Origin: Candidatus Terrybacteria bacterium RIFCSPHIGHO2_01_FULL_48_17
GTDB lineage: Bacteria > Patescibacteriota > Minisyncoccia > Terrybacterales > 2-01-FULL-58-14
Assembly: GCA_001822835.1 (NCBI GenBank)
Contig: MHSS01000002.1
Location: 65,060 to 129,059 of the forward strand
Direction: 5' to 3'
Length of the DNA: 64,000 nt
Position numbers and translations under genes: made by a program. The notes under the pieces are model-generated. The model searched no databases, had not been told where the DNA came from, and saw only the letters and a list, made by a program, of their open reading frames with translations. Of this stretch, positions 3,569 through 59,976 are shown in pieces; within the stretch, counting starts at the first letter, position 1; every line of letters starts with the position of its first letter.

Positions 3569-5056
3569 ATGTCAAATAAATTCTACATCACCACGGCAAT
3601 CGCATATACGAATGCGCCGCCTCATATCGGGTTTGCCCTGGAATTGGTGCAGGCGGATGTGTTGGCGCGGCTTCACGGTCTGCGCGGCGAAAAACGTTTT
3701 TTCCTTACTGGTACAGATGAGCACGGCCGAAAAAATATGCAGGCGGCACAGGGTGCCGGCAAAAAACCTGAAGAATTTGTTGATGAAATGGCGGGGCGTT
3801 TTGAAAAGCTCGCTCGCGCATTAAACGTTTCCAACGATGATTTTATAAGAACATCCGATCAAGACCGCCATTGGCCGGGCGTTGTCCAATTTTGGAAACA
3901 ACTTCAAGAATCCGGAGATCTATACAAAGCTCAATACGAAGGGCTTTATTGTTCGGGTTGCGAGGCATTCAAAAAACAAAGCGATCTTGAAGATGGCATG
4001 TGTCCTGACCACGGCAAAGTTCCCGACAGGGTGAAGGAAGAAAACTGGTTTTTCCGTCTTTCAAAATACCAAAAAGAGCTTACGCGCATTATTGGAGCGG
4101 ACGAACTTCGTATAGTGCCGGACACCCGTAAAAACGAAGTACTGTCATTTATTGCGCAAGGGCTGGAAGACGTTTCCTTTTCGCGTCCCCGAAGGGATTT
4201 GCCTTGGGGCGTTCCGGTTCCGGGCGACGACGCCCAAACTATATACGTTTGGGCCGATGCTTTAGTGAATTATCTTACCGGAATAGGGTACGGACACGGA
4301 CCTGGGGACAGGGTTCAGGGGACAGAAAGATTTGAAACATTCTGGCCGGCGGATATTCATGTTATCGGCAAAGACATCTTGCGATTCCATGCGGTAATCT
4401 GGCCGGCAATGCTGTTGTCGGCAAGATTGACGTTGCCCAAAATCCTTTTAGTGCATGGGCACATTCTTTCCGCTGGTAAAAAGATGTCAAAAACAATCGG
4501 AAACGTCGTTGACCCTTTTGCTATTGTTGAAAAATACGGGGTAGACGCAGTACGTTATTTTTTGCTAAAAGAAATTCCGACAACCGCAGACGGTGATTTT
4601 ACTGAAGACCGATTCCTTGAGGTTTATACTTCATCGCTTGCCAATAATCTTGGGAATCTGGTAGGGAGGATTGCCGCGTTGGGTAAAGATCAGGAGATAA
4701 CAGTACAGGCAGGACAGGATATTCAGGAAGTTGCAAAACGCGCGTGGGCAGAATACGAAGCGGCGTTTGCCGCCTTGCGGCTTGATGAGGCGTTGGGTGC
4801 TGTAGATAAGTTTGTCGGTTTCGGGAACGAATTCGTTGAGCGTACAAAGCCATGGGAAGGTGAGCATAATTTGCACGGTGCCTTGCCGCAGCTTGCGTGG
4901 ATGCTTGGCAATATTGCGTGGATGTTAGCACCACTTTTGCCCGAGACCGCGCGCAAAATTTTTGACCAATTAGGAATTGATCCGGGAGATACTGCGTTGT
5001 GGGAAGGAGAGAGTATTAAAATGAAAAAGGGCGCTTCGTTGTTTCCGAGGTTTTAA
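3569..5056 (+). CDS. metG: methionyl-tRNA synthetase (short form)
   Basis: Class I HIGH-like motif (PPHIGFA), KMSKT motif, and CSGC...CPDHG zinc knuckle. Confidence 0.9.
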   Translation: MSNKFYITTAIAYTNAPPHIGFALELVQADVLARLHGLRGEKRFFLTGTDEHGRKNMQAAQGAGKKPEEFVDEMAGRFEKLARALNVSNDDFIRTSDQDRHWPGVVQFWKQLQESGDLYKAQYEGLYCSGCEAFKKQSDLEDGMCPDHGKVPDRVKEENWFFRLSKYQKELTRIIGADELRIVPDTRKNEVLSFIAQGLEDVSFSRPRRDLPWGVPVPGDDAQTIYVWADALVNYLTGIGYGHGPGDRVQGTERFETFWPADIHVIGKDILRFHAVIWPAMLLSARLTLPKILLVHGHILSAGKKMSKTIGNVVDPFAIVEKYGVDAVRYFLLKEIPTTADGDFTEDRFLEVYTSSLANNLGNLVGRIAALGKDQEITVQAGQDIQEVAKRAWAEYEAAFAALRLDEALGAVDKFVGFGNEFVERTKPWEGEHNLHGALPQLAWMLGNIAWMLAPLLPETARKIFDQLGIDPGDTALWEGESIKMKKGASLFPRF

Positions 5057-5057
5057 T

Positions 5058-5203
5058 ACTCGCGATGAGCTTTTTCGCTTTCTGCGTTCCGCCCACCGAG
5101 CGGAACGCAGGGACTCGGCCTGCGCTCCCGAGCACTCAACGCGTTGAGTGCTCGGACCATGGCCGCTCCGGCCTCGTAACCCGCTCAAAAGCTCATCGTT
5201 CGC
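5058..5203. repeat. hairpin-rich intergenic repeat, copy A (terminal inverted repeats ctcgcgatgagctttt / aaaagctcatcgttcgc; internal perfect hairpins)
   Basis: Starts 2 nt after the metG stop; arms are near-identical to the arms of copy C (42421/42573); internal 24-nt perfect palindrome gagcactcaacgcgttgagtgctc. Confidence 0.7.
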
Positions 5204-5234
5204 ATATTAAAGAAGTCATCAGTCCTCATCAAAT

Positions 5235-8077: not shown

Positions 8078-8299
8078 ATGAATTATCAGCAGGCACGGCA
8101 GGCGAGGAAAGATTTTATGCGAGAGCACTTGCAGCAATTTAGCGACACGGTACACTCATGTAATCTTCTTGTGAAATGGAGCAATCCTCCGCAATGGACG
8201 ATTTACCTACGGCTCAAAAAGGAATTGCCGCAAGGCATGTACCTGCCGGAAACTTACCGAGGATTGAATGTCCGCACAGAGGTGGGAGGAAAAAAGTAA
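8078..8299 (+). CDS. small protein, paralog 3 (shorter, diverged; LPETYRGLNV)
   Basis: GGAGG 8 nt upstream; shares the C-terminal W-I...LP..Y(K/R)GL-V motif with paralogs 1 and 2. Confidence 0.5.
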   Translation: MNYQQARQARKDFMREHLQQFSDTVHSCNLLVKWSNPPQWTIYLRLKKELPQGMYLPETYRGLNVRTEVGGKK

Positions 8300-8646
8300 T
8301 GAAAAATCATGTAACTTGGAATGTGATCGAGCTTACTATTTTTGAGGCGATTAGGAGTGATCTTTCGGCAGCGCGCTCTGGGATTATGCGAGGCAATAAT
8401 TTACCCTCGCAACACCGAATTTTTACCGCATTGCTGAAAGCAGGTTATCTCACCAAAACCTTTGATCCCGCACGCTGTTGGAGGCCGATGGAAAGGCATT
8501 GCGACAACGAGATCGAGGCGTCAATTAGTAATACTTTTGAAGAATATCTTGCACAACACAAGAAGGGTGTTTTAAAGATCGGGCCAGATATCGTGCGTCG
8601 TATCTACCAAGCGCTTGCCCAAAAAGGATACGTAAGAAAAAAATAA
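8299..8646 (+). CDS. hypothetical protein (fourth gene of the coupled operon)
   Basis: TAATG stop/start overlap with paralog 3, GGAGG upstream; 115 aa, basic C-terminus; followed directly by a terminator. Confidence 0.5.
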   Translation: MKNHVTWNVIELTIFEAIRSDLSAARSGIMRGNNLPSQHRIFTALLKAGYLTKTFDPARCWRPMERHCDNEIEASISNTFEEYLAQHKKGVLKIGPDIVRRIYQALAQKGYVRKK

Positions 8647-9478: not shown

Positions 9479-10054
9479 ATGCAAAACTCGCGTATTTTGG
9501 GACTTGATCTTGATGGGACGTTGGCAGATCATACGTTCGCCAAAATTGCTATTGCCCGCGAACTCGGCTACACCCTTTCCCCTCCGCAAACGGCATCGGC
9601 GATTTTAAGACACATCATGCAGCCGGAGCATTACCGGACGTTGCAAAAGCGACTCTATCACGATTTTGCCCCACATTCCCCAAAGACCGTGGGGGCCGAA
9701 GAAGCGCTTGATGAACTTCGAGTGCGTGGGTGGGATTTCCTAGTTATTTCCCGTCGAGGGGGAGAGGACTCGCAGGACTTGGCTCGGCAATGGGTTGTGC
9801 AGGAATACGCTGGCATGATTCCTTCCGAACAGGTTTTTTTCGTTGAGGAAGACGCCGCAAAAAACACCGTCGCGAAAGAACATGGCGTGTTGGGATATGT
9901 TGATGACCAACAGGAGGTTTTAAATTATCTTGCGTCCGTAAAATACCGTTTGTTGTTTGATCCCTTTGAGAATTTTCTTACTAAAACGCCGCCGCATATT
10001 TTTCTGATGCATGCATGGCGCGAATTACCCCAGCTTTTAGCCCCGTTTGAATAA
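9479..10054 (+). CDS. HAD-superfamily hydrolase
   Basis: DxDGT motif (LGLDLDGTLAD) 8 residues after the Met at 9479; the ORF-track start at 9356 overlaps the divergent gene and is unlikely. Confidence 0.7.
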   Translation: MQNSRILGLDLDGTLADHTFAKIAIARELGYTLSPPQTASAILRHIMQPEHYRTLQKRLYHDFAPHSPKTVGAEEALDELRVRGWDFLVISRRGGEDSQDLARQWVVQEYAGMIPSEQVFFVEEDAAKNTVAKEHGVLGYVDDQQEVLNYLASVKYRLLFDPFENFLTKTPPHIFLMHAWRELPQLLAPFE

Positions 10055-13479: not shown

Positions 13480-14397
13480 ATGCGCCTTGCGTTCAAGGTC
13501 AATGCATTCGCCAACCGTCCTGATGTGCTTGTGCACGCTGCACACACGATTAAGGATGCGGGTTTTTCCGGAATCGGGTTGGTATTTGATAAGCCGTTTT
13601 TATGGCTTCCGAACCTTAAGGCAGATCGAATCAGGCAGCTGCGTAAGCTTTTGCAAGAAACTGGTTTGTCTGTTGAGAGCGTTTCAACGTGCACCGCTTC
13701 CGGGTATTGGCGGCCTGATGACGATTTTACCCCTGCGGGTCAGCGTTTCGGCCCTTCTTTTACTTCGCGCAATTCCAAAGAGCGGGAGCTGCGGGTGCGC
13801 CATACAATCAAGGTTATTGATTTTGCCCAAGCTGTGGGATGCCGTTATGTTGATACCTCAACCGGGTATCAGCCACAGGATATGGATGTTGCGACCACAT
13901 GGAAATACACGCGCGATTGCTTGCGCCAAATTTGCGACTATGCAGAGAAACGGTGCGTGTCCGTCAATATAGAATACGAACCGGGCGAGTTCGGTCCAGG
14001 CGGACTTTTTGTGGGCGATGCATCGACGGCAATGTTGATGATAGCCGATGTTGGCTCGCCTGCGTTGGGTGTCAACTTGGATGTCGGGCACTCGTATGTA
14101 TGCGGTGAAGATGTTCCTGCCACAATACGTATGTTGGGAGAGCGCGTACGCGTGGTTGAGCTTGACGATATCGCAAGCCGGCGCGACGAAAAAGGAGTTA
14201 TGCGCCGCAGGCATTATCATCTGGTCCCCGGAGAAGGGGAGATAGAGTACCGGCCTATTTTTGAGGCGTTGCGTGAAATCAATTTTCAAGGTCCCGTAAT
14301 TGTTGAGCTTTACAGTTTATTCGATAAAAATCCCGAAGATGCTTGCAAAAAGACCTTTGGTTATTTAGCAGCAAACTACGGATCCTTTTTCAAATAA
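13480..14397 (+). CDS. sugar phosphate isomerase/epimerase (xylose-isomerase-like TIM barrel)
   Basis: GGAGG 8 nt upstream of the ATG at 13480; AP-endonuclease-2/xylose-isomerase-like TIM-barrel signature with metal-ligand E/D/H pattern. Confidence 0.75.
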   Translation: MRLAFKVNAFANRPDVLVHAAHTIKDAGFSGIGLVFDKPFLWLPNLKADRIRQLRKLLQETGLSVESVSTCTASGYWRPDDDFTPAGQRFGPSFTSRNSKERELRVRHTIKVIDFAQAVGCRYVDTSTGYQPQDMDVATTWKYTRDCLRQICDYAEKRCVSVNIEYEPGEFGPGGLFVGDASTAMLMIADVGSPALGVNLDVGHSYVCGEDVPATIRMLGERVRVVELDDIASRRDEKGVMRRRHYHLVPGEGEIEYRPIFEALREINFQGPVIVELYSLFDKNPEDACKKTFGYLAANYGSFFK

Positions 14398-33518: not shown

Positions 33519-34610
33519 CTACGCCTTTTTGTTTATAATGTCAAGAAACAGTTGTTCGTAGCCGTCCACCATCTTTTCTACCGTAAAATATTCCTCTACG
33601 TGTTTTCGGCACGCCCTACGATCAATTTGGTCAATTTTTTTCATAGCGTCGGCCATTTCCTCAACCGTATCTACAATAAATCCAGTCACTCCGTCTTTCA
33701 CCACTTCAGGTACCGATCCACGACGGAATGCGATTACTGGGGTTCCGCAGGCCATCGCCTCAATCATGGTAAGCCCAAATGGTTCTTCCCATCGAATAGG
33801 GATCAGTACGGCCCGGGCTTTTTGGTAGAAGCGAACAGTTTCCGAATAGGGGACAAGACCTTCGCTGCGAATCTGATTGCCATCAAGGAAGGGTTCGATG
33901 CGGGTATTCCAATAGTCATCTTTTCCCTGTCCCCCCACAATGCGAAGAGATTGTTTGCAAAGTCGTGCCGCCTCTATAGCTTCTGCCGTTCCCTTGTCTT
34001 TATTTATGCGACCGATGAAGAGGAAAAAATCTTCTGGGGTTTGGGAAAAAGGAAATTTTTCTATATCAATGCCGTTATATACTGTTTCTATCCAATGAAG
34101 ATTTTGCGCAGGTTTTCGTTGCGCATCGCTGATGGAAACAAGGTATTGGGGGGAATCTTTGAAGAGTCCAAAAGCTTTTTCATGCCAACTATATACCGGA
34201 GTATGAAGAGTATATATAGTTGGCGTCTTAGCAACAAAACCTAACGGAAGACCTCGATCAAGGGCATGGGCGTGAATTACATCAAATGGCTTGTCACGAT
34301 CCATTTTGTAGAGTTCCGCGAAAAGGCGTTGATCCCATAGATTAATGATTTTTTCCCGTTCGGTATGCCGAATATCCTCTGCCTGATAAATTTCCGGTTC
34401 TTGCGGGTAATTTTTATGAAACGGCTCAAGCTCTGCAGTAACAATAGTAGTTCCCTCAAGTCGCGAGCCATTGGGAGTAAAGAACGTAACTTCATGGCCG
34501 CGTTGCGCAAGTCCTTTATTGATCATCATGGCCATCCATATGGGGGCATACACGACCGAAGGTGGGGGCGGGGCGGGAAAGGCGGCAGTAACAATTGAAG
34601 CAATGCGCAT
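33519..34610 (-). CDS. glycosyltransferase family 4 (GT-B)
   Basis: EPFGLTMIEAMACGTPVIA...GSVPEVV...GFIV C-terminal GT4 signature. Confidence 0.85.
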   Translation of the reverse strand: MRIASIVTAAFPAPPPPSVVYAPIWMAMMINKGLAQRGHEVTFFTPNGSRLEGTTIVTAELEPFHKNYPQEPEIYQAEDIRHTEREKIINLWDQRLFAELYKMDRDKPFDVIHAHALDRGLPLGFVAKTPTIYTLHTPVYSWHEKAFGLFKDSPQYLVSISDAQRKPAQNLHWIETVYNGIDIEKFPFSQTPEDFFLFIGRINKDKGTAEAIEAARLCKQSLRIVGGQGKDDYWNTRIEPFLDGNQIRSEGLVPYSETVRFYQKARAVLIPIRWEEPFGLTMIEAMACGTPVIAFRRGSVPEVVKDGVTGFIVDTVEEMADAMKKIDQIDRRACRKHVEEYFTVEKMVDGYEQLFLDIINKKA

Positions 34611-34615
34611 ATCCT

Positions 34616-35671
34616 TTATTTTCTTCTTAAAATTTTGTAGTAGAGACGTTCATATGCCTCCACCATTCGTTCTTTTGAAAACATTCGTTCTACCCATCGA
34701 CGGCACATGTTTCTGTCAATCTCGTTGATGCGCGTCATCGCCGCCACTATTCCTGGAATGTTTTTGACAAGAAAACCGGTTTTCCCCTGAAGGACAAGTT
34801 CTGGCACTGATCCTCGAGGATATCCGATTATCGGCGTTCCGCACGCCATGGCTTCGGTCATGACAAGCCCAAATGGCTCATTCCATTCGATTGGGTAAAG
34901 AAGCGCGCGCGCACCGCCATAGAAAGCAGAGAGTTCGTGCTCGGGAATTTCTCCGATGTATTGTATTTTTCTTGATAGATGGGGCTTGATCGCTTTCCGA
35001 AAATAGTCGCGTTGCGTTGGGTCAAGTCGCCCCGCCAACAGTAATTTTTCGCCTGCACGTTCGCATGCAGCGATCGCGTTTTCGATCCCTTTGTGTTTAT
35101 TGATGCGCGCAATCCATGCAAAATAATCTTTCGGCCTTGAAGAAAAATAAAGATGTGCAAGATCGTTTCCGTTATAAATTACCCAGCTTTTGGGAAAGTG
35201 GACTTTTGCAATAGCGCGCTCGGATTTGCTGATAAATACCGCGTTGGTGCTGTGGCGATAGACACGGAAAAGCGAAAGCCGATCATCTAATCCGCGGGCT
35301 TCTCGGTAGAGTTGATTATGAAACGTGTGAACAGTTGGCGTTGCCGTAAGCTCTTGAAAAAAAAGTGTCCACAAATCAAGATGCGAGTGGATAATATCAA
35401 ATTGATGAGATTTCCCATAAACCGCGCTGAGATTCCGTAGATTCCACAGTGGATTTTGCCACTGAATACCTTCGGCAATGAGAGGTTTTGGGTATACGCT
35501 TACCAACTTCGCGCGCGTTTTTGAACCTGGCGCTGCAAAAAGCGTCACCTCATGACCATGTTCTATAAGTCCATCGCAGAGCCACGCAATAATGCGTTCA
35601 ATCCCGCCATATTTTTTTGGGGGGATGGTAAACCATAGGGGCGCAATTTGTGCGATGCGTAATTTTTTCAT
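34616..35671 (-). CDS. glycosyltransferase family 4 (paralog)
   Basis: EPFGLVMTEAMACGTPIIG signature; tandem with its neighbours. Confidence 0.85.
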   Translation of the reverse strand: MKKLRIAQIAPLWFTIPPKKYGGIERIIAWLCDGLIEHGHEVTLFAAPGSKTRAKLVSVYPKPLIAEGIQWQNPLWNLRNLSAVYGKSHQFDIIHSHLDLWTLFFQELTATPTVHTFHNQLYREARGLDDRLSLFRVYRHSTNAVFISKSERAIAKVHFPKSWVIYNGNDLAHLYFSSRPKDYFAWIARINKHKGIENAIAACERAGEKLLLAGRLDPTQRDYFRKAIKPHLSRKIQYIGEIPEHELSAFYGGARALLYPIEWNEPFGLVMTEAMACGTPIIGYPRGSVPELVLQGKTGFLVKNIPGIVAAMTRINEIDRNMCRRWVERMFSKERMVEAYERLYYKILRRK

Positions 35672-36702
35672 GCTTGTTTGGAAAGAATTTTTCTATAGAG
35701 CTTTTCGTATTCGTTTGTCATGCGCTCAAGCGAAAAGTGGCGCTCCGCAACCGCACGACACATGTGTCGCGATATCTCCGGGATTTTTGAAACGAGGCGC
35801 GCCATATGAAGCGTTGAGCGGGCAAAAAAACCGGTTTTGCCGTTTTCAATGATTTCAGGAACCGATCCTTCAGGAAATGCGAGTACGGGCGTGCCACAGG
35901 CGAGTGCCTCTATCATAACAAGCCCGAATGGTTCTCGGCGTAAGATCGGAAACAAAAGGGCGTCTGCTCCCTGCATGAGTTTTACCTTTTTGTCAAAATC
36001 TGCCTGTCCGATATAGATGATTTTTTCATTGAGACGCGGTTTAATTCTTCGCACAAAAAACTCCCAGCCGTCTTTTCCTACGATGTTTCCCGCAATAATT
36101 AATCTGCGTTTCGCAATGCGGGCGACCTCAATTGCTTCGATAACTCCTTTCTCTTCATCAATTTTTGAAAGGAACAGCAGATATCCCTCCGAGTGTTTGG
36201 AGAAAGGATAGCGCTCAAGCGGAAGGCCGTGGTAAATAACTTGTTCGATGGAAAGGGGAGATGCGCTTTGCGCTTGGTCTTTTGAAATGGCGACGAACTT
36301 GATGTTTTTTGCTTCTTGATAGAGGTGGTGGGTTTCGGGGTAAAGCGGACGATGCAGGGTTTGCACAATCGGGATGGTGAGTTGTCGTGCAAAGGGTGCA
36401 AAATAAAATCCAATGTGGCTATGGATGATGTCAAATTGATTGGCGTTTTCTGTAACTTTTTGAATTAAGTGAAGAATACATGCGTGGGGATCGCGCAGGG
36501 TTCGGTCGCGCCAAATCGCTTTGGGACACGAAGACACGAGGGTACCCGCTGTCTTGGAATCCCCTGATGCGAAAAGCGTAACGTGATGGCCGCGCGCAAT
36601 CAGCTCTTCGGTAAGAAGCGAGACGACATATTCTGTGCCGCCATGGGTAATTGGCGGCACGGGAACCCACACGGGCGCTATTTGTGCAATACGCAATGGC
36701 AC
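35668..36702 (-). CDS. glycosyltransferase family 4 (paralog)
   Basis: EPFGLVMIEALACGTPVLA signature; 4-nt overlap with the upstream gene. Confidence 0.85.
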   Translation of the reverse strand: MPLRIAQIAPVWVPVPPITHGGTEYVVSLLTEELIARGHHVTLFASGDSKTAGTLVSSCPKAIWRDRTLRDPHACILHLIQKVTENANQFDIIHSHIGFYFAPFARQLTIPIVQTLHRPLYPETHHLYQEAKNIKFVAISKDQAQSASPLSIEQVIYHGLPLERYPFSKHSEGYLLFLSKIDEEKGVIEAIEVARIAKRRLIIAGNIVGKDGWEFFVRRIKPRLNEKIIYIGQADFDKKVKLMQGADALLFPILRREPFGLVMIEALACGTPVLAFPEGSVPEIIENGKTGFFARSTLHMARLVSKIPEISRHMCRAVAERHFSLERMTNEYEKLYRKILSKQA

Positions 36703-37863: not shown

Positions 37864-37930
37864 AAGCCCGCCTCTGGCGGGAAACTCGAAATCCTAAATC
37901 CGAAATCCAAAATAAATCCAAAACAAAAAA

Positions 37931-37966
37931 TTCGTATATTCGTATCTATTCGTATTTCGTAGTATG
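37931..37966 (+). repeat. 36-nt TTCGTA-hexamer motif, copy 1 (ttcgtatattcgtatctattcgtatttcgtagtatg)
   Basis: Near-identical to the motifs at 40255-40290 and 45986-46020; here it lies between rpmB (minus strand) and tRNA-Pro. Confidence 0.7.
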
Positions 37967-39447: not shown

Positions 39448-39933
39448 TTGTGGTTTTTAAGTATGCGCAGGAACCGTAAACTTCATAAAAGAGAACAACT
39501 TGATCGTTTGTATAACTCGCCGCTGGTGGGCAAGCTTATCAATTATGTAATGTACGACGGAAGGCGGCTTACCGCCGAGAGAGTTGTGTATGCGGCGCTT
39601 AAAGAGGCGGCAAAGCGCACGGAGAAAGAGCCGCTTGCGGTATTTGAGGAAGCGCTTAAAAATACGTCCCCCGTGCTTGAGGTGCGCTCACGGCGCGTAG
39701 GGGGCGCAACGTATCAGGTGCCGCGCGAGGTTCGAGGAGAGCGCAGAGTACAATTGTCGCTTCGGTGGATTGTGGCTGCATCCCGCGGACATAAAAAACG
39801 AAAGAATATGGCAGAGGCGTTAGCCGAAGAGTTGGCACTGGCAGCGCAAGGACAGGGAAGTGCGGTGAAAAAGCGGGAGGATATGCATAAAATGGCAGAG
39901 GCGAACAGGGCGTTTGCGCATTTTGCATGGTAG
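39448..39933 (+). CDS. rpsG: 30S ribosomal protein S7
   Basis: S7 signature (DGRRLTAE...ALKE; SRRVGGATYQVP). Confidence 0.92.
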   Translation: MWFLSMRRNRKLHKREQLDRLYNSPLVGKLINYVMYDGRRLTAERVVYAALKEAAKRTEKEPLAVFEEALKNTSPVLEVRSRRVGGATYQVPREVRGERRVQLSLRWIVAASRGHKKRKNMAEALAEELALAAQGQGSAVKKREDMHKMAEANRAFAHFAW

Positions 39934-40024
39934 CTTTGGCGCTCGGGTAGCCCGCCTCGCGTCTGCAGGGGACCCTTGCGTTCCCTAAGGCCGCTTCGGC
40001 GTGCCACCGCTCGCGCCAAAGCTC
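39934..40024. repeat. hairpin-rich intergenic repeat, copy B (arms gctttggcgctcggg / ccgctcgcgccaaagc; its core is shared with copy C)
   Basis: Begins at the nucleotide after the rpsG stop; about 75-nt core about 90% identical to 42463-42546. Confidence 0.7.
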
Positions 40025-40188
40025 TCTTTATCCGCATGCGCAAGGAGGAGGGGGAGAGAAAAAACTAACTCCACAGCTTCGCTCACGCTCAGCAAGATTT
40101 TCGGGACTTTTCAAAACGCACCCTTCGCGCCTTCTTAATTGGAGGGGTGCGCGGAAGCCGGAAAAGAAAGGGTAAGAAAAACGAAAGT

Positions 40189-40220: not shown

Positions 40221-40255
40221 TTGACGTATACTGCTTGAAGCGTTATTGTTATAAT
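40221..40255 (+). promoter_or_regulatory. candidate sigma-70-type promoter for fusA (TTGACG-N17-TATTGT, then TATAAT)
   Basis: Same TTGACG-N17-TATT.T architecture as the candidate tuf promoter at 43274. Confidence 0.35.
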
Positions 40256-40290
40256 TCGTATATTCGTATTCATTCGTACTTCGTAGTATT
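40255..40290 (+). repeat. 36-nt TTCGTA-hexamer motif, copy 2, ending 5 nt before the fusA ATG
   Basis: ttcgtatattcgtattcattcgtacttcgtagtatt; no SD between the motif and the start codon. Confidence 0.7.
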
Positions 40291-40295
40291 TATTT

Positions 40296-42419
40296 ATGCC
40301 TCGACAATATCCAATAGAACGTCTTCGCGACATTGGCATCATTGCCCACATTGACGCGGGCAAGACAACCGTAACCGAACGGGTGCTTTTCTATACCGGG
40401 ATTTCTCACAAAATCGGGGAGGTGCATGAAGGGCAGGCCGTTATGGATTGGATGGAACAGGAGCGCGAACGTGGTATTACCATAACATCCGCCGCCACCA
40501 CTTGTTTTTGGATACCGCTTGAGTTTACCGGTCTTGTAGACCAAGCAGCGCGAAAAGCAAAAGAATTTCGGTTCAATATCATCGATACCCCGGGCCACGT
40601 TGACTTTACTATTGAAGTTGAGCGGTCATTGCGCGTGCTTGACGGGGGCGTGGTTGTATTTGATGGAGTTGCGGGGGTGGAGCCGCAGTCGGAAACCGTA
40701 TGGCATCAGGCAGACCGGTATCACGTTCCTCGTATTTGTTTCATTAACAAACTTGATCGCCTCGGGGCTTCATTTGAAAAATCGCTTGCATCAATTCACG
40801 AACGCTTAACCCCCCATGCCGTAGCGTTGCAGCTCCCTATTGGTATTGAGGATTCGTTTTCCGGCGTTGTTGATCTTTTGCTTGAAAAAGCAATTCGTTT
40901 TGAAGGGGAACACGGGGAGAAAGTAGTATATGGGGATATCCCTGAAAACATGAAAGCGGAGGTGCGAAAAGCGCGTGAAGCGCTTATTGAAAAAATTGTT
41001 GAGCATGACGATACGCTCATGGAAAAATATCTAGCAGGAGAGATGCCCTCGGTTGATGAGTTGCGCGCGGTTTTGCGAAAAGCAACCATTACAGGAAAGG
41101 TGATCCCGGTACTATGTGGCTCGGCCTTAAAAAACAAGGGTGTGCAGCCCTTGCTTGATGCGGTGGTTTATTATCTTCCGTCTCCACCCGAGCTTCCACC
41201 GGTTGAGGGTACGCACCCCAAAACCGAAGCGCAGGAAACCCGTGAGCCCGATGACAATATGCCCTTTGCCGCTTTGGCTTTTAAAGTTGCAACGGATCCT
41301 TATGTTGGGCAATTAACTTTCTTCCGTGTATATTCGGGAACCTTAGGTCGAGGATCTTACGTGTTAAATACTACTTCCGGCGAGAAAGAGCGGATTGGTC
41401 GCATTGTGCGCATGCATGCAAATACCCGAGAAGAGGTTGAGGAAATGTTTGCGGGAGATATCGGCGCAATCGTGGGACTCAAAAATACTTCTACCGGAGA
41501 TACGTTGTGTGCGCCAGAAAAACCAATTGTGCTTGAGCGTATTACCATTCCAGAACCCGTAATCTCCGTACGGATTGAACCAAAATCGAAAGCGGATGAA
41601 GAAAAACTTGGGATGGCGCTTCGCCGGCTTGCAGAAGAAGATCCCACGTTTCGTGTTTCCGGTGATCAAGAAACGGGTGATACGATTATTTCTGGAATGG
41701 GGGAGCTTCATCTTGAAATTATTGTCGACAGAATGAAACGCGAATTTTCCGTTGATGCAAATGTCGGCGCGCCACAAGTTGCATACAAAGAAACCGTTTT
41801 AACAACGGCGGAAGCGGAAGGAAAATATATTCGCCAGACGGGCGGGCGCGGGCAATACGGCCATGTATGGCTTCGGGTGGAGCCGACGGAGCGAGGATCG
41901 GGTTTTGAATTTGTTGATGCAATTAGGGGAGGAGTAATTCCTAACGAATTTATCCCTGCAGTTGGCAAGGGCGTGAAGGAGGCAATGGATAAAGGAATTG
42001 TGGCCGGTTACCCGATGGTGGATGCGAAAGTAACGCTTTATGACGGCTCGTACCATGACGTTGATTCTTCAGAGGCCGCGTTTAAAATCGCCGGCTCCAT
42101 GGCATTTCAGGAAGCAGCAAAACGGGCAAAGCCGGTTATGTTGGAACCGGTAATGAGCTTATCGGTGGTGGTACCAGAACAATTTTTGGGCGATATTACG
42201 GGGGATATTTCGTCCAGACGCGGCCGCATTGAGGAGCTTGGCGAGCGCGGACAAATGAAGGAGGTAGATTCAAAAGTGCCCTTGTCTGAAATGTTTGGCT
42301 ATGCCACGCAACTTCGCTCTATGACACAGGGAAGGGGAGCGTTTACCATGGAATTTTCACATTACGAGGAGGTGCCCGGGAATATTGCGCAGGAGATTGC
42401 GGCAGGGAAGCGGAGATAA
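40296..42419 (+). CDS. fusA: elongation factor G
   Basis: [10 protein letters not shown]1 motif, DTPGHVDF, full five-domain length (707 aa). Confidence 0.95.
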
Positions 42420-42420
42420 T

Positions 42421-42590
42421 GCTCGCGATAGCGCTTTTCGCTTTCTTCGGCTTGTCGATTTCTTGGGCGCTCGGGTAACCCGCCTCACGTCTGCAGGGTA
42501 CCCTTCCGTTCCCTAAGGCCGCTTGGCGGGCCACCGCTCGCGCCCAACAATTTTTGACCTCGTAACCCGCTCAAATCACTATCGCTCGCT
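42421..42590. repeat. hairpin-rich intergenic repeat, copy C (composite: arms like copy A, core like copy B)
   Basis: Starts 1 nt after the fusA stop; left arm gctcgcgatagcgcttttcgctttc matches copy A; right arm ctcgtaacccgctcaaa...atcgctcgc matches copy A 5170-5203. Confidence 0.7.
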
Positions 42591-42763
42591 AGAGAAATCG
42601 AGACGCTTTTCAAAACGCATCTTCTCGCGCCTAAGAATGAGGGAGGAAAAAAGAAGCCGCCGGTGGGCGGCTGTTGTTATCCCGAGCCGGGTCGAAGGAT
42701 TGATTTTTTTGATAGAAATGGTATATGATTTTTGCACGTTTAGAATTCGAAAAGGAGGATGTT

Positions 42764-43480
42764 ATGACTGCCCCGAATATCTATCTTCGCGCATGGTATG
42801 CGCGATACGGTTTCTCCGATGCCGAATCGTTTCGAGATGCTCTTCTTTCTTCTTTCTCGGGCGCGCCTCTTTTGTCACAGTTTCAGGAAAGGAAAATCGT
42901 GTTATTCCGCAGAACCCGAATATCGCATTTCGCCTTACTTGATGTCTATGACGATGGGTTTCATATTTTATTGAATCGAGAAAGAAGCGTACGCCAGTGG
43001 CTTGTTGACATCGGACACGAGCTTATTCATACGTTTCATTATGATCTTTCGACTCTTCCGCCAGTAAATCTGTTTCGAAAGATGTTCGGGGATCCCGATC
43101 CCGCGCTTGAATATTTTTGTGATTCTGTGGCACGCCGGTGGTTGTTGCAAGATCGGAACGCACGGGCATTGGTTGCACTCTTACGGTCGCAAAGATGGCA
43201 GGGCGAGGTGTTGTGGATTCCAAAACCGCTCCATATGGGCGGTTTCCCCTTTTTATGTATATATTGTAAGGGCTTGACGGATTGTTTTGCCTTGACTATT
43301 ATAATGGTTGCGCTGTATAACAGTGAAGTTAGCTTTATTAATGAAATCCCTCGATTGCGCAGTGATTGCAAAAGGAAGTCCCTCGTTTTGCTTGGGGATC
43401 TACTTTCGCAGCCACTCGCGAAGCTCGCGGGCGAAAGTAACATATGGCAGGAAAATTTGAACGCACCAAACCTCACGTAA
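42764..43480 (+). CDS. hypothetical HExxH protein (ImmA/IrrE- or SprT-like putative zinc metallopeptidase) inserted between fusA and tuf
   Basis: AAAAGGAGG SD 8 nt before the ATG at 42764; motif [13 protein letters not shown]; the 3' end overlaps the tuf start by 37 nt and contains the candidate tuf promoter, so the true stop may be earlier (possibly decayed). Confidence 0.45.
43274..43305 (+). promoter_or_regulatory. candidate sigma-70-type promoter for tuf (TTGACG-N17-TATTATAAT)
   Basis: Good -35/-10 with 17-nt spacer about 140 nt upstream of the tuf ATG. Confidence 0.4.
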
Positions 43481-44637
43481 ACGTAGGAACTGTTGGTCAC
43501 GTTGACCACGGCAAGACCACCCTGACTGCGGCAATCATGCACGGCCTGAAACTTAAAGGTCTTATTGACACCGCAGAATCGGTCGACCAGATCGATAATG
43601 CTCCCGAAGAGAAGGCGCGTGGTATTACCATAGCCCTTCACCACTCCGAATACGAAACAGAAAAGCGTCACTATGCACACATCGATGCTCCCGGACACGC
43701 CGACTATATTAAAAACATGATTACGGGGGCAGCCCAAATGGACGGTGCGGTTTTGGTGGTTTCTGCAGCCGACGGCCCGATGCCCCAGACGCGCGAACAT
43801 ATTCTTTTGGCGCGGCAGGTGGGAGTTCCTAAAATTATCGTCTTTTTGAATAAAGTTGACGCGGTTGACGATCCTGAATTTATTGATATTGCAGAATCGG
43901 AAGTGCGGGACCTTTTGAAAAAATATGAGTATCCTGGCGATGAAATTCCTGTGGTTAGGGGATCGGCGCTCAAAGCCCTTGAGGCAAAATCCGCGGATGA
44001 CGAGGCGGTAAAACCCATTTTTGAGCTTTTGGCAAAATTGGATGAGTATATTCCGGAACCGCAAAGAGATATCGACAAACCTTTCTTGATGCCCGTTGAG
44101 GATATTTTTTCCATTGAGGGTCGCGGAACAGTGGTTACCGGAAGGATCGAACGCGGGCTTATTAAGCTTAATGATGAGATAGAAGTCATTGGATTGCGGC
44201 CAACGCAAAAGACCGTGATTACGGGTATTGAGATGTTCCGCAAGAGCTTGGACGAAGGCCGGGCAGGGGATAATGCCGGACTCCTTTTACGAGGCCTTAA
44301 GAAGGAGGATGTCGAGCGCGGGCAGGTCCTTGCAAAGCCAGGAAGCGTTACCCCGCATACTGAATTTGAGTGCGAACTTTATGTGTTAACAAAAGATGAA
44401 GGCGGCCGCCATACGCCCTTCTTTACCGGTTACAAACCCCAGTTTTATATCCGAACGTGTGACGTGACTGGAGAGGTTACGCTTCCGGAGGGCACAGAAA
44501 TGGTGATGCCAGGAGATACGGTGTCGGTGAAATCGAAATTAATGGCTCCGGTTGCGCTGGAGGAGAAACAGCGGTTTGCGGTGCGCGAAGGCGGACGAAC
44601 TGTTGGTGCAGGAGTGGTTACAAAAATTATTCAATAA
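43444..44637 (+). CDS. tuf: elongation factor Tu
   Basis: [26 protein letters not shown] motifs; 397 aa. Confidence 0.97.
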
Positions 44638-44711: not shown

Positions 44712-45074
44712 ATGGCCGATGCTCCCTTAAAGGAAAAGAAAACAAAAGCGGTGCCGGAGATCGAAACGACACCAAAGCTACGTATTAAAGTTCGGGCATA
44801 CGACCATAAGGTTTTGGACAATTCGTGCCGACAAATTGTGGAAACGGCGTTGCGCGCAAATGCGGAAGTATATGGTCCGGTACCTTTACCCACGGAGTTT
44901 CATCGTTACACCGTAAACCGTTCCACGTTTGTGCACAAAGATGCACAGGAGCAATTCGAAATTCGTGTTCATCGTCGCCTCATTGATATCGTAAACCCTT
45001 CCCAGAAACTTATCGATGCGCTCACCAATTTGACCTTGCCAACCGGTGTTGATGTTGAGATAAAGGCCGTTTAA
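44712..45074 (+). CDS. rpsJ: 30S ribosomal protein S10
   Basis: S10 core ([14 protein letters not shown]...GPVPLPT...[10 protein letters not shown]). Confidence 0.92.
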
Positions 45075-45178
45075 GTATTTCTTTTAGAAACATGCGAATG
45101 AACTAGTATGCACTGTTGAGTCGCGAGAGCCAGGCCCGCTCCGGCGGGCTTTCTTTATGCCCGCGGCATTTAAACATT

Positions 45179-45781
45179 ATGAAATTTCTTTTAGGAACGA
45201 AAATAGGAATGAGCCAAACATGGAAAACGGATGGGGGCGTAGTTCCGCTTACCGTTATTCAGGCGGGGCCCATGGTGGTTACTCAAAAAAAGACATCAGA
45301 AAGGGATGGTTATGAAGCCATACAAGTATCCCTTGGCAAAAGAAAACGGCTTAAGAAGCCGCAACAAGGACATCTGAAGAAGGGCAAAACTGATACCGCA
45401 CGCTGGTTGCGCGAAGCTCGCGGGGCATGGAACGTAGAGTCAGGGGCCGTTATTGATGTATCCGTATTTGTTCCAGGTGATATTGTTAAGGTTTCCGGCA
45501 TTTCCAAAGGGAAGGGTTTTCAGGGAGGTGTAAAGCGACATGGTTTTCATGGGGCTTCGGCAACGCATGGTACCAAACATGCGCATAGACAGCCCGGATC
45601 TATTGGATCTTCTTGGCCCGAGCGAGTGCGAAAGGGAAAGAGAATGGCAGGAAGGATGGGGCATGAGCGGGTTACGGTGAAAAACCTAGAAGTGGTGAGT
45701 GTGGACAAAGAGAAAAATTTGTTGGCGGTGAAAGGAGCGGTGCCTGGTGCACGGGGAACGTTGCTTGAGATACGGGGCTAG
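45179..45781 (+). CDS. rplC: 50S ribosomal protein L3
   Basis: MKFLLGTKIGMSQ... L3 N-terminus; the ORF track's upstream extension from 45116 spans a GC hairpin and is unlikely to be coding. Confidence 0.9.
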   Translation: MKFLLGTKIGMSQTWKTDGGVVPLTVIQAGPMVVTQKKTSERDGYEAIQVSLGKRKRLKKPQQGHLKKGKTDTARWLREARGAWNVESGAVIDVSVFVPGDIVKVSGISKGKGFQGGVKRHGFHGASATHGTKHAHRQPGSIGSSWPERVRKGKRMAGRMGHERVTVKNLEVVSVDKEKNLLAVKGAVPGARGTLLEIRG

Positions 45782-45784
45782 ATC

Positions 45785-45945
45785 GGATGCTTGGGATGCG
45801 TCTCGAAAAGACGTGTCGCGCGCCCAGCGAGGCGCGCGCACTCTCGCTCGGCGTTGTTCTCCCGCCAACGATTAAACTTTTAGGGAAGGCGGGAACCATG
45901 CCCGCAACGCCTCCGCGAAGCTTTTCTCAACACATCCCAAGCATC
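45785..45945. repeat. hairpin-rich intergenic repeat, copy D (arms ggatgcttgggatg / catcccaagcatc)
   Basis: Starts 4 nt after the rplC stop; shares the ggaaccatgcccgc segment with copies E and F. Confidence 0.65.
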
Positions 45946-45985
45946 TGACGAGATTTTCATTTTGTCAAAGTGGCGTGAAAAAAGA

Positions 45986-46020
45986 TTCGTATATTCTTAT
46001 CGATTCGTACTTCGTAGTAT
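45986..46020 (+). repeat. 36-nt TTCGTA-hexamer motif, copy 3, ending 3 nt before the rplD ATG
   Basis: ttcgtatattcttatcgattcgtacttcgtagtat. Confidence 0.7.
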
Positions 46021-46023
46021 TTT

Positions 46024-46677
46024 ATGAAGGTTAAGGTTTATACCAAAGAAGGAAAACAGAACGGCACCGTTGAGCTGCCGGATTCTGTGTTTGGCGTTCC
46101 CATGAACAATGATTTGTTACATCAGGCAATGAGCGTTATGCTTTCGCGAAGGCGTCAGCCGCGTGCGCATACCAAAACCAGAGAAGAGGTGCGGGGCGGT
46201 GGGCGTAAGCCCTGGCGTCAAAAAGGAACTGGGTTTGCGCGGCATGGTTCGCGCCGCTCGCCCATTTGGAAGGGCGGTGGTGTAACGTTTGGCCCACGCA
46301 AAGATAAAAGATTTGCAAAACGAATTCCCGATGCCATGAAGAAAAAAGCATTGGCCGTTGCATTGTCTCAAAAAGCACGAGACGAGGAGCTTGCCGTTAT
46401 TGAAAAGATTTCCGTATCGCAGCCAAAAACAAAAGAAGCGGCATTGCTTCTTACCACGCTTCTCGCGTCAATTTTTAAAGTAGAAAAGAAAGCAAAAAAA
46501 CCATCGGTGCTTATTGCTTTTGCGAAAGAAAATCAGGGGCAGGCATTCCGTGCAGTGCGTAATATACCCTATGCCCAAGCATTCCGTCCGGAAAATCTCA
46601 ATCTTCTTGAGGTGCTGGAATATCGCTATATTTTAATCCCAAAAGAAACAGTGGATGATTTGGTGAAACGTTTTTAA
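46024..46677 (+). CDS. rplD: 50S ribosomal protein L4
   Basis: L4 family pattern (RRQPRAHTKTR...GGGRKPWRQKGTG(F)ARHGS). Confidence 0.92.
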   Translation: MKVKVYTKEGKQNGTVELPDSVFGVPMNNDLLHQAMSVMLSRRRQPRAHTKTREEVRGGGRKPWRQKGTGFARHGSRRSPIWKGGGVTFGPRKDKRFAKRIPDAMKKKALAVALSQKARDEELAVIEKISVSQPKTKEAALLLTTLLASIFKVEKKAKKPSVLIAFAKENQGQAFRAVRNIPYAQAFRPENLNLLEVLEYRYILIPKETVDDLVKRF

Positions 46678-49562: not shown

Positions 49563-49665
49563 TTTAATTTCTAATTAACCTAATTGACCTAAGTGTTTAT
49601 GTGGTTTTGAATTAGTCATTCATTAGATCAATTAGAGATTAGAGCAATTAGACATTTTTACGGTT

Positions 49666-49698
49666 ATGCTAATTCCCAAGAAAGTAAAACATCTCAAG
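49666..49698 (+). pseudogene. displaced duplicate of the rplP 5' end (encodes MLIPKKVKHLK, compare real [11 protein letters not shown]), followed by unrelated sequence
   Basis: 33-nt segment 27/33 identical to the real rplP start at 49875; continues into a GC hairpin (gcccgcctcgggcgggc), not into an L16 body. Confidence 0.6.
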
Positions 49699-49874
49699 TC
49701 GCCCGCCTCGGGCGGGCTCTCAAGAAACCCTCGGTTTCTTGCGCTCGCCTTCGGCTCGCTGGTTTCCGATACGGGAAACTTCCGTTTTCCGACCCTTTCC
49801 CGATTTTCAATGTTTTACTTTTTGCCCGGACAACATGTTTGCATGAAAAAATATAAGGTTATGGTTTTTGCGCT

Positions 49875-54576: not shown

Positions 54577-55848
54577 ATGTTTGAGAAACTTTTACTTTTG
54601 TGGAAAATTTCGGAATTGCGCGCAAAGATTCTTTTTGTGCTTGGCATGCTTGCGGTGTTCCGGCTCGCCGCATCGATCCCCGTGGCCGGTGTCGACACAG
54701 AACGGCTTGCTGCATTTTTCCAGTCGAATCAGCTTTTTGGCCTCATCAATATTTTTACGGGGGGAACGCTTGAAAATTTATCAATCGCCATGCTTGGTGT
54801 GGGGCCTTATATTACCGCAACCATTATTCTGCAGTTGCTGACCATGATCTTCCCGCGTTTAAAGGAAATGTATTACGAAGAGGGCGAACAGGGGCGGCAG
54901 AAATTTAACCAAATCGGGCGTCTTTTGACCGTCCCCTTGGCGATTCTGCAAGGTTTTGGTTTTTTGCGACTTTTAGCTTCACAGGGCGTTGTAGAGTTAA
55001 CACCTATCACCACCGCAGTTAACATTGCGGTCGTAGTTGCAGGAACCATTCTTTTAATGTGGCTTGGGGAACTGATTACGGAAAAAGGTATTGGCAACGG
55101 TGTTTCGCTTATCATCTTTGCCGGTATTGTGGCATCTATCCCGCAATCACTCTTTCAGTTTTTCTCAACGTGGGATCAGACAAAACTTTTTCAAACCGTA
55201 GCATTTGCGGCAATTGCAATTATTGTTGTGGCGGGTGTGGTTTTAATTAACGAGGCACAGCGGCGCGTTCCTATTGCGTATGCCAAGCGTATCCGCGGAT
55301 TTCGTATGTACGGTGGTGTTTCAACGCACCTTCCTATACGCGTAAATTCCGCTGGCGTTATTCCCATTATTTTTGCCTTGTCCATCGTGCTTTTTCCGGG
55401 AATGATAGCCCAATTTTTCACTACGGTGGATGTTCCTCAAATTGCAAGTATCGCTAATACAATTCAAAATATTTTTTCCGTAAATAACTGGACGAGCATA
55501 TTTATCTATTTTGGTTTAGTGTTTATATTCACTTATTTTTATACCGCTGTCATTTTTGATCCCAAGGAAATTTCACAAAACATCCAGCGCTCAGGCGGAT
55601 TTATCCCAGGAATTCGGCCGGGCTCGCCCATGGTAAGCCATCTCTCGCGTATTATTAACCGAACTACTCTTGTCGGAGCTTCGTTTTTGGGAATCATTGC
55701 GGTGTTGCCACAAGTGATGCAGCAGGGCTTGAATCTGCCCGCCCTCACCATCGGGGGAACGGCGGTATTGATTGTCGTGTCGGTGGTGATTGAGACGATG
55801 AAACAAATAGAAGCGCAGCTGACAATGCGGGAATACGAAGGGTTTTAG
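54577..55848 (+). CDS. secY: preprotein translocase subunit SecY
   Basis: 10-TM SecY pattern, 423 aa, canonical position after L15. Confidence 0.93.
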   Translation: MFEKLLLLWKISELRAKILFVLGMLAVFRLAASIPVAGVDTERLAAFFQSNQLFGLINIFTGGTLENLSIAMLGVGPYITATIILQLLTMIFPRLKEMYYEEGEQGRQKFNQIGRLLTVPLAILQGFGFLRLLASQGVVELTPITTAVNIAVVVAGTILLMWLGELITEKGIGNGVSLIIFAGIVASIPQSLFQFFSTWDQTKLFQTVAFAAIAIIVVAGVVLINEAQRRVPIAYAKRIRGFRMYGGVSTHLPIRVNSAGVIPIIFALSIVLFPGMIAQFFTTVDVPQIASIANTIQNIFSVNNWTSIFIYFGLVFIFTYFYTAVIFDPKEISQNIQRSGGFIPGIRPGSPMVSHLSRIINRTTLVGASFLGIIAVLPQVMQQGLNLPALTIGGTAVLIVVSVVIETMKQIEAQLTMREYEGF

Positions 55849-55850
55849 AG

Positions 55851-56000
55851 CTCGCGCAGGGCCATTTGCGAAACGCGACAATCCCCAGCGAGGATTGTCG
55901 CTCTGTCCTCGCCGCGCTCCCCCGCATACGGTTTATATTTTATAAGGAAGCGGGGACCATGCCCGCGCGGCTGCGAAGGTTCGCAAATGTCCCTTCGCTC
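55851..56000. repeat. hairpin-rich intergenic repeat, copy E (arms cgcagggccatttgcgaa / ttcgcaaatgtccct); same subfamily as copy F
   Basis: Starts 3 nt after the secY stop; about 25-nt terminal segments identical to 59705/59814; internal perfect hairpin gcgacaatcc/ggattgtcgc. Confidence 0.7.
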
Positions 56001-56099
56001 ACCCCAAAAAAGTTGCTTGGCTGCTTCATTCATTGTTTCGTAAAGAGAAGGGTAGGATAAAAGGAGACCGGCCGTGCATTGCACGGCCGGTTTTTGTTT

Positions 56100-59694: not shown

Positions 59695-59838
59695 CACGAG
59701 TTCACGCAGGGCCATTTGCGAAACGCGCGCAGCCCCAGCGTGTCTGCGCGCTCTGTCCTCGCCGCGCTCGCCCCGATGGCCATCGGGGCACCATGCCCGC
59801 GCGGCTGCGGAGGTTCGCAAATGTCCCTCCGCTCACTC
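59695..59838. repeat. hairpin-rich intergenic repeat, copy F (same subfamily as copy E)
   Basis: Arms cacgcagggccatttgcgaaacgcg / aggttcgcaaatgtccctccgctcac; internal hairpins gcgcag...ctgcgc and ccccgatgg/ccatcgggg. Confidence 0.7.
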
Positions 59839-59976
59839 GCGGGAGGATCATAACGCGCTCAAAGTGCTACGCGCCCGCAAGAATAATCTGTTTTTCTCAA
59901 TCTTAATGCACTAGTCGCGTTTTTTCTGGAAGACGCACGTTCCTCCCTTTGTTTTTAGAGAGGAAAAGAGAAAAGG

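Follow-up and report, generated by a model that had tools for sequence, protein, structure and literature searches.

In a 64-kb stretch of the genome of Candidatus Terrybacteria bacterium RIFCSPHIGHO2_01_FULL_48_17 (64,000 nucleotides of contig MHSS01000002.1, positions 65,060 to 129,059; hereafter the window), we analysed copy D (45783-45948, + strand, 166 nt), a structured non-coding element between the ribosomal protein genes rplC (L3) and rplD (L4). Its fold and its matches to covariance models describe a three-way junction closed by a long stem (P1), and it belongs to a family of uncatalogued, lineage-restricted, structured elements of 140-185 nt, with a P1 of about 17-25 bp, that is both retained at one locus and dispersed to others. 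By analogy with intergenic repeats of other bacteria, we put the chance at about one in two that copy D is a lineage-restricted, structured, co-transcribed repeat which acts in cis on its messenger via mRNA 3' ends. A sequence-only reading of the window had already taken copy D for a structured member of a repeat family that includes copies A, E and F, and the fold, the model matches and the covariation reported here all bear this out.

Structure of copy D and of its family

The rplC gene (45179-45781, + strand; Pfam Ribosomal_L3) ends with TAG at 45779-45781, copy D begins 1-3 nt past this stop, and a further 75 nt separate its end from rplD (46024-46677, + strand; Pfam Ribosomal_L4, E = 2e-57). 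The ends of the element, GGATGCTTGGGATG from 45785 and its partner CATCCCAAGCATC ending at 45945, are exactly complementary over 13 nt; the outer helix reaches 16 bp when one G.U is counted (45783-45798 with 45933-45948), and a repeat search returned inverted arms of 28 nt that are 82% complementary. The sequence-only reading was thus right in placing complementary ends 4 nt after the rplC stop, and right that a TTCGTA motif (a 41-nt block, 45980-46020) and then the ATG of rplD (46024) follow. It had also claimed that the element splits the normally contiguous S10 cluster, and the rplC-rplD spacer is indeed 242 nt long, compared with a median of about 24 nt, most spacers being 30 nt or less, in 80 S10 loci of other genomes. 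The rplC-rplD locus was found again on many metagenome contigs from the Rifle aquifer.

The segment 45782-45950 (169 nt) folds at -84.7 kcal/mol, compared with -55.2 +/- 4.0 kcal/mol for dinucleotide shuffles (z = -7.5; none of 200 shuffles folded as well), and copies E and F fold with z = -3.4. On the + strand, the 5' side of P1 (45783-45810) comprises the 16-bp outer helix, a small internal loop and an inner helix (GAAAAG, 45805-45810), its 3' side occupies 45921-45948, both being supported by the repeat arms and the fold, and the inner helix covaries among the copies (GAAAAG/CUUUUC, UGCGAA/UUCGCA, GAGC/GCUC). Hairpin P2 (45813-45841; GUG-U-CGCGCGCC, loop CAGCGA at 45825-45830, GGCGCGCG-CAC) shows compensatory changes in all 11 of its pairs, with 99% of cells paired in a curated alignment, and its loop reads CCAGCGA, CCAGCGU or CCACCGA in every copy (CAGCGA in the fold of copy D). 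The P3 arm (45843-45920), in which 15 of the 19 pairs show compensatory changes in the same alignment, is built from P3a (CUCGC/GCG-A-AG), P3b (GGCGUUGU/GCAACGCC), an internal loop UC, P3c (UCCCGCC/GGCGGGA) and an AU-rich terminal loop (45867-45887) whose length and sequence differ between copies. The two-base UC loop is faced by a conserved 3' bulge with the consensus ACCAUGSCC, ACCAUGCCC in copy D (45895-45903), ACCAUGGCC in copy A and ACCGUGGCC in L156 (L numbers denote loci on other contigs). The word GGGAACCATGCCCGC at 45891-45905 had been said to recur in copies E and F and, more distantly, in copy A; it stands at 55952 and 59786 with 0-1 mismatch, and copy A carries GGACCATGGCCGC at 5154-5166. 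At up to three mismatches the window contains 12 matches to GGGAACCATGCCCGC, compared with 2.9 expected, and none of 100 shuffles reached 12.

The alignment also suggests a candidate pseudoknot of three base pairs between the bulge (U45899, G45900 and C45901) and the P2 loop (G45829, C45828 and G45827, in this order). Of these, G45827-C45901 appears as G-C in seven copies and as C-G in two copies that belong to different subfamilies (A and L156), and is broken in none; its neighbours, a C-G and a G.U, do not vary, the G.U being a C.A mismatch on the other strand; the proposal comprises one covarying pair in nine sequences, and 15 of 500 shuffles equal it. A switch between P3c and an alternative hairpin, GCGGG-loop-CCCGC, was rejected, there being no covariation in its favour in copy A or L156.

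The combination of MAFFT and RNAalifold mis-paired P2; the nine copies were aligned by hand, block by block, with N padding and without gaps. In this curated alignment 98.6% of 285 cells hold standard pairs, changes on both sides occur in 32 of the 36 pairs, and no shuffle out of 500 matched this result; when the partners are shifted by 1-3 columns, pairing falls to 31-54%. Independent support for covariation comes from a comparison of the strains L121 and L142, which differ by a compensatory change in P2 (GCGCGC/GCGCGC versus GCACGC/GCGUGC).

Four copies of the family lie in the window (A, D, E and F) and others on other contigs, all of them intergenic. Copies A, D, E and F have one architecture built from stems of differing sequence, and the outer stems differ by subfamily: GGAUGCUUGGGAUG in D, AGGG-C-CAUUUGCGAA in E and F, GCGAUGAGCUUUU in A and GGCAUUACUUUUU in L151. 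Size variants exist as well, the first L151 copy carrying an extra hairpin of 33 nt and L091 an expanded P2. A covariance model built on the + strand from the D type alone (R1) recovers E, F, A and the second L151 copy at 36-71 bits, within an overall span of 36-204 bits, and a retrained model (R2) scores all these copies at 58-167 bits. Copy D itself scores 189 bits (R1) and 166 bits (R2) on the + strand and 26-29 bits on the - strand, an asymmetry that arises because the models were built on the + strand. Copy A (5054-5208, + strand; R2 103 bits, E = 6e-26) begins at the metG stop (5054-5056), the upstream open reading frame (ORF) being MetRS by Pfam; copy E (55848-56005, + strand; R2 131 bits) begins at the last base of the secY stop codon; and copy F (59698-59839, + strand; R2 103 bits), 83-94% identical to E, lies 68 nt past an ORF of 94 amino acids.

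Beyond the window, L121 and L142 contain a D-type paralogue 2 nt past the stop of a class II aminoacyl-tRNA synthetase gene. A pattern scan of metagenomes gave 42 matches, 36 of them due to chance on high-GC contigs and six true; besides L121 and L142, it brought up L113, an E-type copy, and L114, which is the same locus as L151, a copy of the family in an organism of 40% GC. In the S10 loci of 80 other genomes (1.29 Mb) the models found nothing at E <= 1, and a regular-expression search of 80 S10 loci of GTDB representatives, where the best L4 identity is 48%, did not find the element. In viral contigs the pattern scan gave 10 matches, all chance hits on contigs of 53-72% GC; blastn returned no match in 72,556 plasmids and 50,697 phages; and a literature search on structured repeats in these bacteria found nothing relevant.

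Two further elements of the window, identified by the repeat search, have a different type of core and are detected by neither R1 nor R2. Copy B (39934-40022, + strand), directly past the rpsG stop, has a closing stem of its own and is possibly a distant relative of the D family. Copy C (42420-42595, + strand), directly past the fusA stop, is a mosaic in which a B-type core (42462-42545, 92% identical to that of copy B) is set between arms (42417-42449 and 42558-42589) homologous to P1 of copy A.

Placement behind stop codons, retention and dispersal

The closing stem begins 0-3 nt past a stop codon of the same strand in eight of the ten Terrybacteria loci (A, B, C, D, E, L121, L091 and L156), and the other two copies, F and L113, stand 40-68 nt from the upstream gene. 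Such adjacency is unlikely to be due to chance, because the element-free part of the spacers is mostly tens to hundreds of bases long. The genes upstream (rplC, secY, metG and a class II aminoacyl-tRNA synthetase gene) are highly expressed housekeeping genes. Since the copies lie on the same strand as the gene before them, and neither a sigma-70-like promoter nor an intrinsic terminator is predicted between copy D and rplD, we infer that the element is co-transcribed. In several loci, GC hairpins located 50-150 nt past the element score as minus-strand or bidirectional terminators, and by this prediction the elements in those loci sit in 3' untranslated regions, often at convergent junctions. 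The terminator-like site nearest to copy D, a hairpin with a U tract at 45132-45151, lies between rpsJ and rplC; this site and other hairpins suggest that several transcription units make up the S10 cluster in this organism.

Three species, with L4 identities of 100%, 75% and 59%, carry D-type elements directly 3' of rplC. In the species with 75% L4 identity, the rplC-rplD spacer measures 404 nt and a D-like element (L091:4112-4340) stands directly past the stop; it has the same inner P1 sequence as D, an expanded P2 and the motif ACCAUGCCCGC, and was matched by eye through P1 and the similarity downstream, the models giving it 10-14 bits (E = 0.3-2). In the species with 59% L4 identity, the spacer measures 528 nt and the element directly past the rplC stop (L156:491-639) scores 106 bits (E = 3e-28). 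Similarity among these spacers runs on downstream of the element. The spacer of L156 also holds, on the minus strand at about 733-915, a zinc-ribbon-like ORF of 60 amino acids (CxxC...CxxC) with a minus-strand terminator of its own (721-698), and the S10 cluster is therefore truly split there. In L157, a record labelled Terrybacteria, and in L098, an assembly labelled Armatimonadetes, rplC and rplD overlap. The 5' end of an E-type copy (TAG-TCGTTCGCGCAGAGCC) stands behind secY in a relative whose SecY is 74% identical, on a contig that stops at this point, and R2 found no match in secY relatives at 67-71% identity, whose spacers contain other repeat families.

Near-identical paralogues, on the other hand, stand at different loci: E, F and L113 are 83-95% identical to one another, D and L121 about 90%. 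Contigs repeatedly break inside or at elements (L092-L096, L158). Two copies that are almost identical and lie 2.5 kb from each other were found in the organism of L151 (40% GC), a member of the Candidate Phyla Radiation outside the Terrybacteria whose nearest named relatives for one protein, at 45-49% identity, are Candidatus Berkelbacteria. No target-site duplication was seen in a flank alignment of the borders of E, F and L113, which is a weak test because empty sites for comparison are lacking, and no transposase or RAYT-like gene was found among the ORFs adjoining the copies, the only ORFs scanned.

Proposed mode of action and alternative explanations

If copy D acts on mRNA 3' ends, the Terrybacteria element would be read as sense-strand RNA within the 3' untranslated or intercistronic region of housekeeping messages. 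Starting at the stop codon, the long stem P1 would have a cis effect on its own message, either by blocking 3'-to-5' exonucleases or by giving a double-strand processing site. The upstream cistron would thereby gain a defined and stable 3' end, and rplC would be expressed independently of rplD. The loop and bulge, which are conserved, would form a fold or a docking site for a partner factor, and new copies might arise via duplication or mobilisation.

Several observations weigh against this interpretation. Both strands fold with equal z (-7.5 and -7.2), free energy is in every case lower for the antisense strand, and the recurrent UC/UC and C.A mismatches that P1 shows on the sense strand would read GA/GA and G.U on the other. 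The curated alignment was made to fit the structure and draws on only about five independent lineages, and its shuffle control ignores relatedness. Both L151 copies adjoin divergent promoters and are not 3' of an ORF, and the corresponding spacers of relatives lack them (L153) or contain a different GC-rich element (L154); such presence and absence and such siting at promoters are easier to reconcile with a mobile element than with an mRNA module of dedicated function. The role as stabiliser or processing site, moreover, is argued purely by analogy.

The analogy is with several families of dispersed bacterial repeats. Like the present family, ERIC/IRU elements are imperfect palindromes of more than 100 nt, multi-copy and intergenic, which lie mostly in transcribed regions including operon spacers and have size variants due to internal insertions (compare the first L151 copy and L091). 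ERIC/IRU elements are reported to alter the stability of flanking mRNA. The descriptive features of the ERIC/BOX class (multi-copy, intergenic, imperfect palindrome, size variants by internal insertion) are all present here, yet there is no sequence similarity to ERIC, which belongs to another phylum and forms about one long hairpin of conserved sequence, whereas the present family has a three-way junction, conserved loops, stem covariation between subfamilies and a probable pseudoknot. The REP/BIME elements of proteobacteria are likewise dispersed, GC-rich, structured and mosaic, and stand after stop codons or between cistrons. They shield upstream mRNA from 3' exonucleases, and REPs within about 15 nt of a stop can reportedly stall terminating ribosomes. 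However, REPs are palindromic hairpins of 20-40 nt with a conserved GTAG head, mobilised by RAYT, and this assignment was rejected for the branched fold of 140-185 nt described here, which is four to five times longer and has no RAYT-like gene seen beside its copies. The BOX elements of Streptococcus pneumoniae are modular: the 5' module forms a long stem with the 3' module, and variable inner modules lie between them, a layout comparable to the A-type arms and B-type core of copy C, but there is no homology, BOX modules are conserved in sequence, and no conserved loop or bulge or tertiary pairing has been described. Correia/NEMIS and other MITEs are non-coding, about 100-160 bp long, abundant and co-transcribed, with inverted ends that are RNase III substrates; unlike them, the family shows neither terminal inverted repeats kept in sequence, its termini differing between subfamilies, nor target-site duplications at the borders compared (E, F and L113, a weak test), and a MITE was rejected. 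A looser analogy is offered by the tRNA punctuation of mitochondria, where a compact fold also recurs between cistrons right past the upstream stop, but the element is not tRNA-like and its P1 is far longer than an acceptor stem. The closest kinds by placement and probable effect are thus ERIC, REP/BIME, BOX and Correia, and the family is a member of none of them, their defining sequence features being absent.

Known RNA classes were likewise not recovered. At gathering score, Rfam 15 reports a single tRNA in the whole window; permissive searches gave nothing at E <= 2 on copy D and nothing below about 0.5 on copy E or copies in other loci, and the best scores on the elements were 11-14 bits, with thresholds of 39-114 bits (D, E and three other loci, where only tRNAs were reported). 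The outcome that the sequence-only reading had named as refuting, no consensus structure from Rfam and structure searches and no element in relatives, did not materialise: a covarying consensus structure exists and relatives carry the element. Further candidates were rejected: a tRNA-like element (ARAGORN and Rfam report only true tRNAs), a small-RNA gene standing by itself in L114 (relatives differ from one another at this locus), an integron attC site (on inspection, the ends of D, E and A lack RYYYAAC/GTTRRRY cores, and the flanking genes are essential housekeeping genes, not cassettes), K-turn motifs (not present on inspection), an intrinsic terminator (no GC hairpin with a U tract within 0-2 nt was called at D) and a ribosomal-protein autoregulatory leader (the family is not restricted to the ribosomal operon).

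Among the rival explanations, it is possible, at odds well short of even, that copy D is selfish, non-autonomous DNA of a MITE, REP or BIME kind, an old and tolerated insertion without a role for its host, whose hairpins would be only single-stranded DNA substrates for a transposase with its gene elsewhere. The near-identity of the paralogues, including the two L151 copies, the insertion polymorphism of L151 relative to L153 and L154, the assembly breaks at elements, the very similar core in organisms of two candidate phyla with 48% and 40% GC, the mosaic nature of copy C and the other repeat families in equivalent spacers of a neighbouring lineage (L161) all speak for it. However, terminal stems vary between subfamilies while loops and bulges are conserved, which is the opposite of transposase-recognised terminal repeats; the lack of target-site duplications at the E, F and L113 borders and of transposase genes beside the copies, and the failure of blastn to find the element in plasmids or phages, also argue against it. 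An inert insertion is disfavoured because D-type elements are kept behind rplC with compensatory changes, down to 59% L4 identity. A bolder proposal, unlikely in our view, would make the family a new class of functional, pseudoknotted three-way-junction RNA of Candidate Phyla Radiation bacteria. Excised or cut where P1 closes, autocatalytically or through a host RNase, it would punctuate fragmented housekeeping operons by setting mRNA 3' ends at stop codons, would spread as a mobile RNA-level module, and would be a bacterial counterpart to the tRNA punctuation of mitochondria. The related idea of a punctuation RNA that processes itself at the base of P1, or is cut there by RNase P or RNase III, and so frees mRNAs that end at the stop codon, is improbable: it would account for the onset of P1 right past the stop in most Terrybacteria loci, for a stem of 17-25 bp, sufficient as a substrate for a double-strand RNase, for the conserved unpaired nucleotides and the covarying tertiary pair, and for the several structured repeat families that punctuate ribosomal protein clusters in this group, but no similarity to an Rfam ribozyme or RNase P substrate family was found, the copies outside Terrybacteria are not 3' of ORFs, the junction strands are not conserved, and the pseudoknot amounts to one covarying pair that some shuffles equal.

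The functional molecule might instead be the antisense strand, as RNA or single-stranded DNA, which we regard as quite improbable. In all ten copies the antisense free energy is lower, by 2-18 kcal/mol, the UC/UC loops and the C.A or C.U mismatches of the sense strand become tandem G.A and G.U, and the hairpins downstream of the L091 and L156 elements score as minus-strand terminators. This free-energy advantage arises, however, because the antisense strand is G-rich, and the z-scores are equal, so that the energy gap reflects base composition; an antisense RNA in highly expressed operons would need promoters of its own, for which one weak candidate was seen (9 of 12 matches). Because the pseudoknot G.U is invariant and present only on the sense strand, and because all Terrybacteria copies are in the orientation of the upstream gene (which in the window is confounded with replication direction), the sense strand is favoured, and on these sequence grounds we lean somewhat towards it as the active strand. 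A smaller chance still attaches to cis-regulation of rplD by copy D as a leader or attenuator, be it an L4-binding mimic, a terminator/antiterminator or something similar. Autoregulation of the S10-type cluster by L4 is known in E. coli; copy D lies shortly upstream of rplD, and U-rich stretches follow P1 in D-type copies, but paralogues follow metG, secY and a class II aminoacyl-tRNA synthetase gene, copy E cannot be a leader because a convergent gene follows it, no terminator is predicted at D, and the alternative GCGGG/CCCGC hairpin fails to covary. The sequence-only reading had raised the question of a small self-cleaving ribozyme on account of CGAAA and CTGACGAG. The element resembles hammerhead and other small ribozymes in being a multi-copy three-helix junction with variable stems and conserved unpaired bases, and CGAAA (45804-45808) and CUGACGAG (45946-45953) are present in copy D. 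It differs from them in that the core motifs are absent or unconserved, a hammerhead core (CUGANGA, GAAA and a UH cleavage site) at the junction of all copies not being seen, and covariance models do not match: hammerhead, twister, pistol, hatchet and HDV models gave no match in 45760-46030 and 55800-56050 even at E <= 10 with permissive filters. CTGACGAG / CUGACGAG lie outside P1 and are missing in E, F, A, L121 and L156, the strands needed for a stem II (GCGUCUC and GAUUUUC) do not complement each other, it is a hairpin loop and an internal bulge, not the junction, that hold the conserved bases, and the junction strands vary (AC, UUU or CC; and U, UCUGU or none), so we give this ribozyme next to no weight. 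Scarcely credible, finally, is a small protein, whether the listed ORF of 53 amino acids (45787-45948) or a peptide from the AUG of ACCAUGCCC that is conserved in most copies: L121 differs from L142 or D by a 1-nt indel in the P2 loop that changes the reading frame, the peptides starting at the conserved AUG have just MPA in common and, where read out, stop after 6-55 codons, the AUG is GUG in L156, and there is no conserved Shine-Dalgarno sequence.

Other repeats of the ribosomal cluster and significance

The str-S10-spc ribosomal cluster occupies the + strand of the window from rpsG to secY and includes, besides rplC and rplD, rpsG (39448-39933), fusA (40296-42419), tuf (43444-44637), rpsJ (44712-45074) and secY (54577-55848). 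The TTCGTA block downstream of copy D is separate from it. This block of 41 nt with four TTCGTA repeats occurs in three copies that are 85-90% identical (37925-37965, 40249-40289 and 45980-46020, the last on the + strand), and it ends 6 nt before the ATG of fusA and 3 nt before that of rplD; a related sequence, ATTCGTAGTA, stands before rplD in L156. No sigma-70-like promoter was called at the blocks, which could be a signal for translation initiation or protein binding. The rpsC-rplP spacer (49563-49874, 312 nt) has a GC-rich core of three short hairpins closed by AGAAAGUAAAACAU/AUGUUUUACUUUUU and embedded in AT-rich repeats of an AATTAG type, apparently a third kind of element in the ribosomal cluster. 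Another conserved block, TTTTCAAAACGCAYC..CTCGCG (40085-40135, 42608-42640 and L091:95-125), stands 60-100 nt past copies B and C and past the post-fusA element of the relative; it leads on to GCCGCC...GGCGGC hairpins, each set between an A tract and, behind it, a U tract. Between fusA and tuf, and overlapping the tuf start, stands an ORF of 251 amino acids without a Pfam match (42725-43480); L091 has two ORFs at this position, one with an HExxH motif. Outside the cluster, three tandem paralogous genes of about 350 amino acids each occupy the minus strand at 33519-36702, with direct repeats about 1.05-1.09 kb apart.

In L161, from a neighbouring lineage with 67% SecY identity, many gaps of the ribosomal cluster hold one of two other inverted-repeat families, AGTGAATTGGC...CCAAACCTTTACCCC and ACCAACAAC...GTTGTTAGTTAC (spacers 2581-2726, 3249-3403, 4193-4301, 4719-4840, 8088-8323, 9809-10000 and 13802-13923). 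Structured repeats between ribosomal protein genes may be common in this bacterial group. At the site of the first L151 copy, L154 (9696-9790) and L155, which has the same sequence, contain a GC-rich branched element, GGGATCGCCTT...AAGGCGATCC with GCTCGCTCCGTCGAGCTCCGCCC, which may be a very divergent relative of the family.

In the tiny genomes of the Candidate Phyla Radiation, non-coding DNA that is kept inside essential operons needs explaining, and the str-S10-spc cluster of this Terrybacteria species is broken up by structured repeats. Because contigs break at repeats of this family, it is also a warning to genome assemblers. If the element is mobile, it would be a new, structure-defined type of mobile element found in lineages that are assigned to different candidate phyla. 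Either way, the analysis yields a covariance model ready for use and a fold, including a candidate tertiary pair, that can be put to the test. If, as in the reading we prefer, the elements act on mRNA ends, they would show how these bacteria adjust ribosomal protein ratios in the absence of the customary compact operon.

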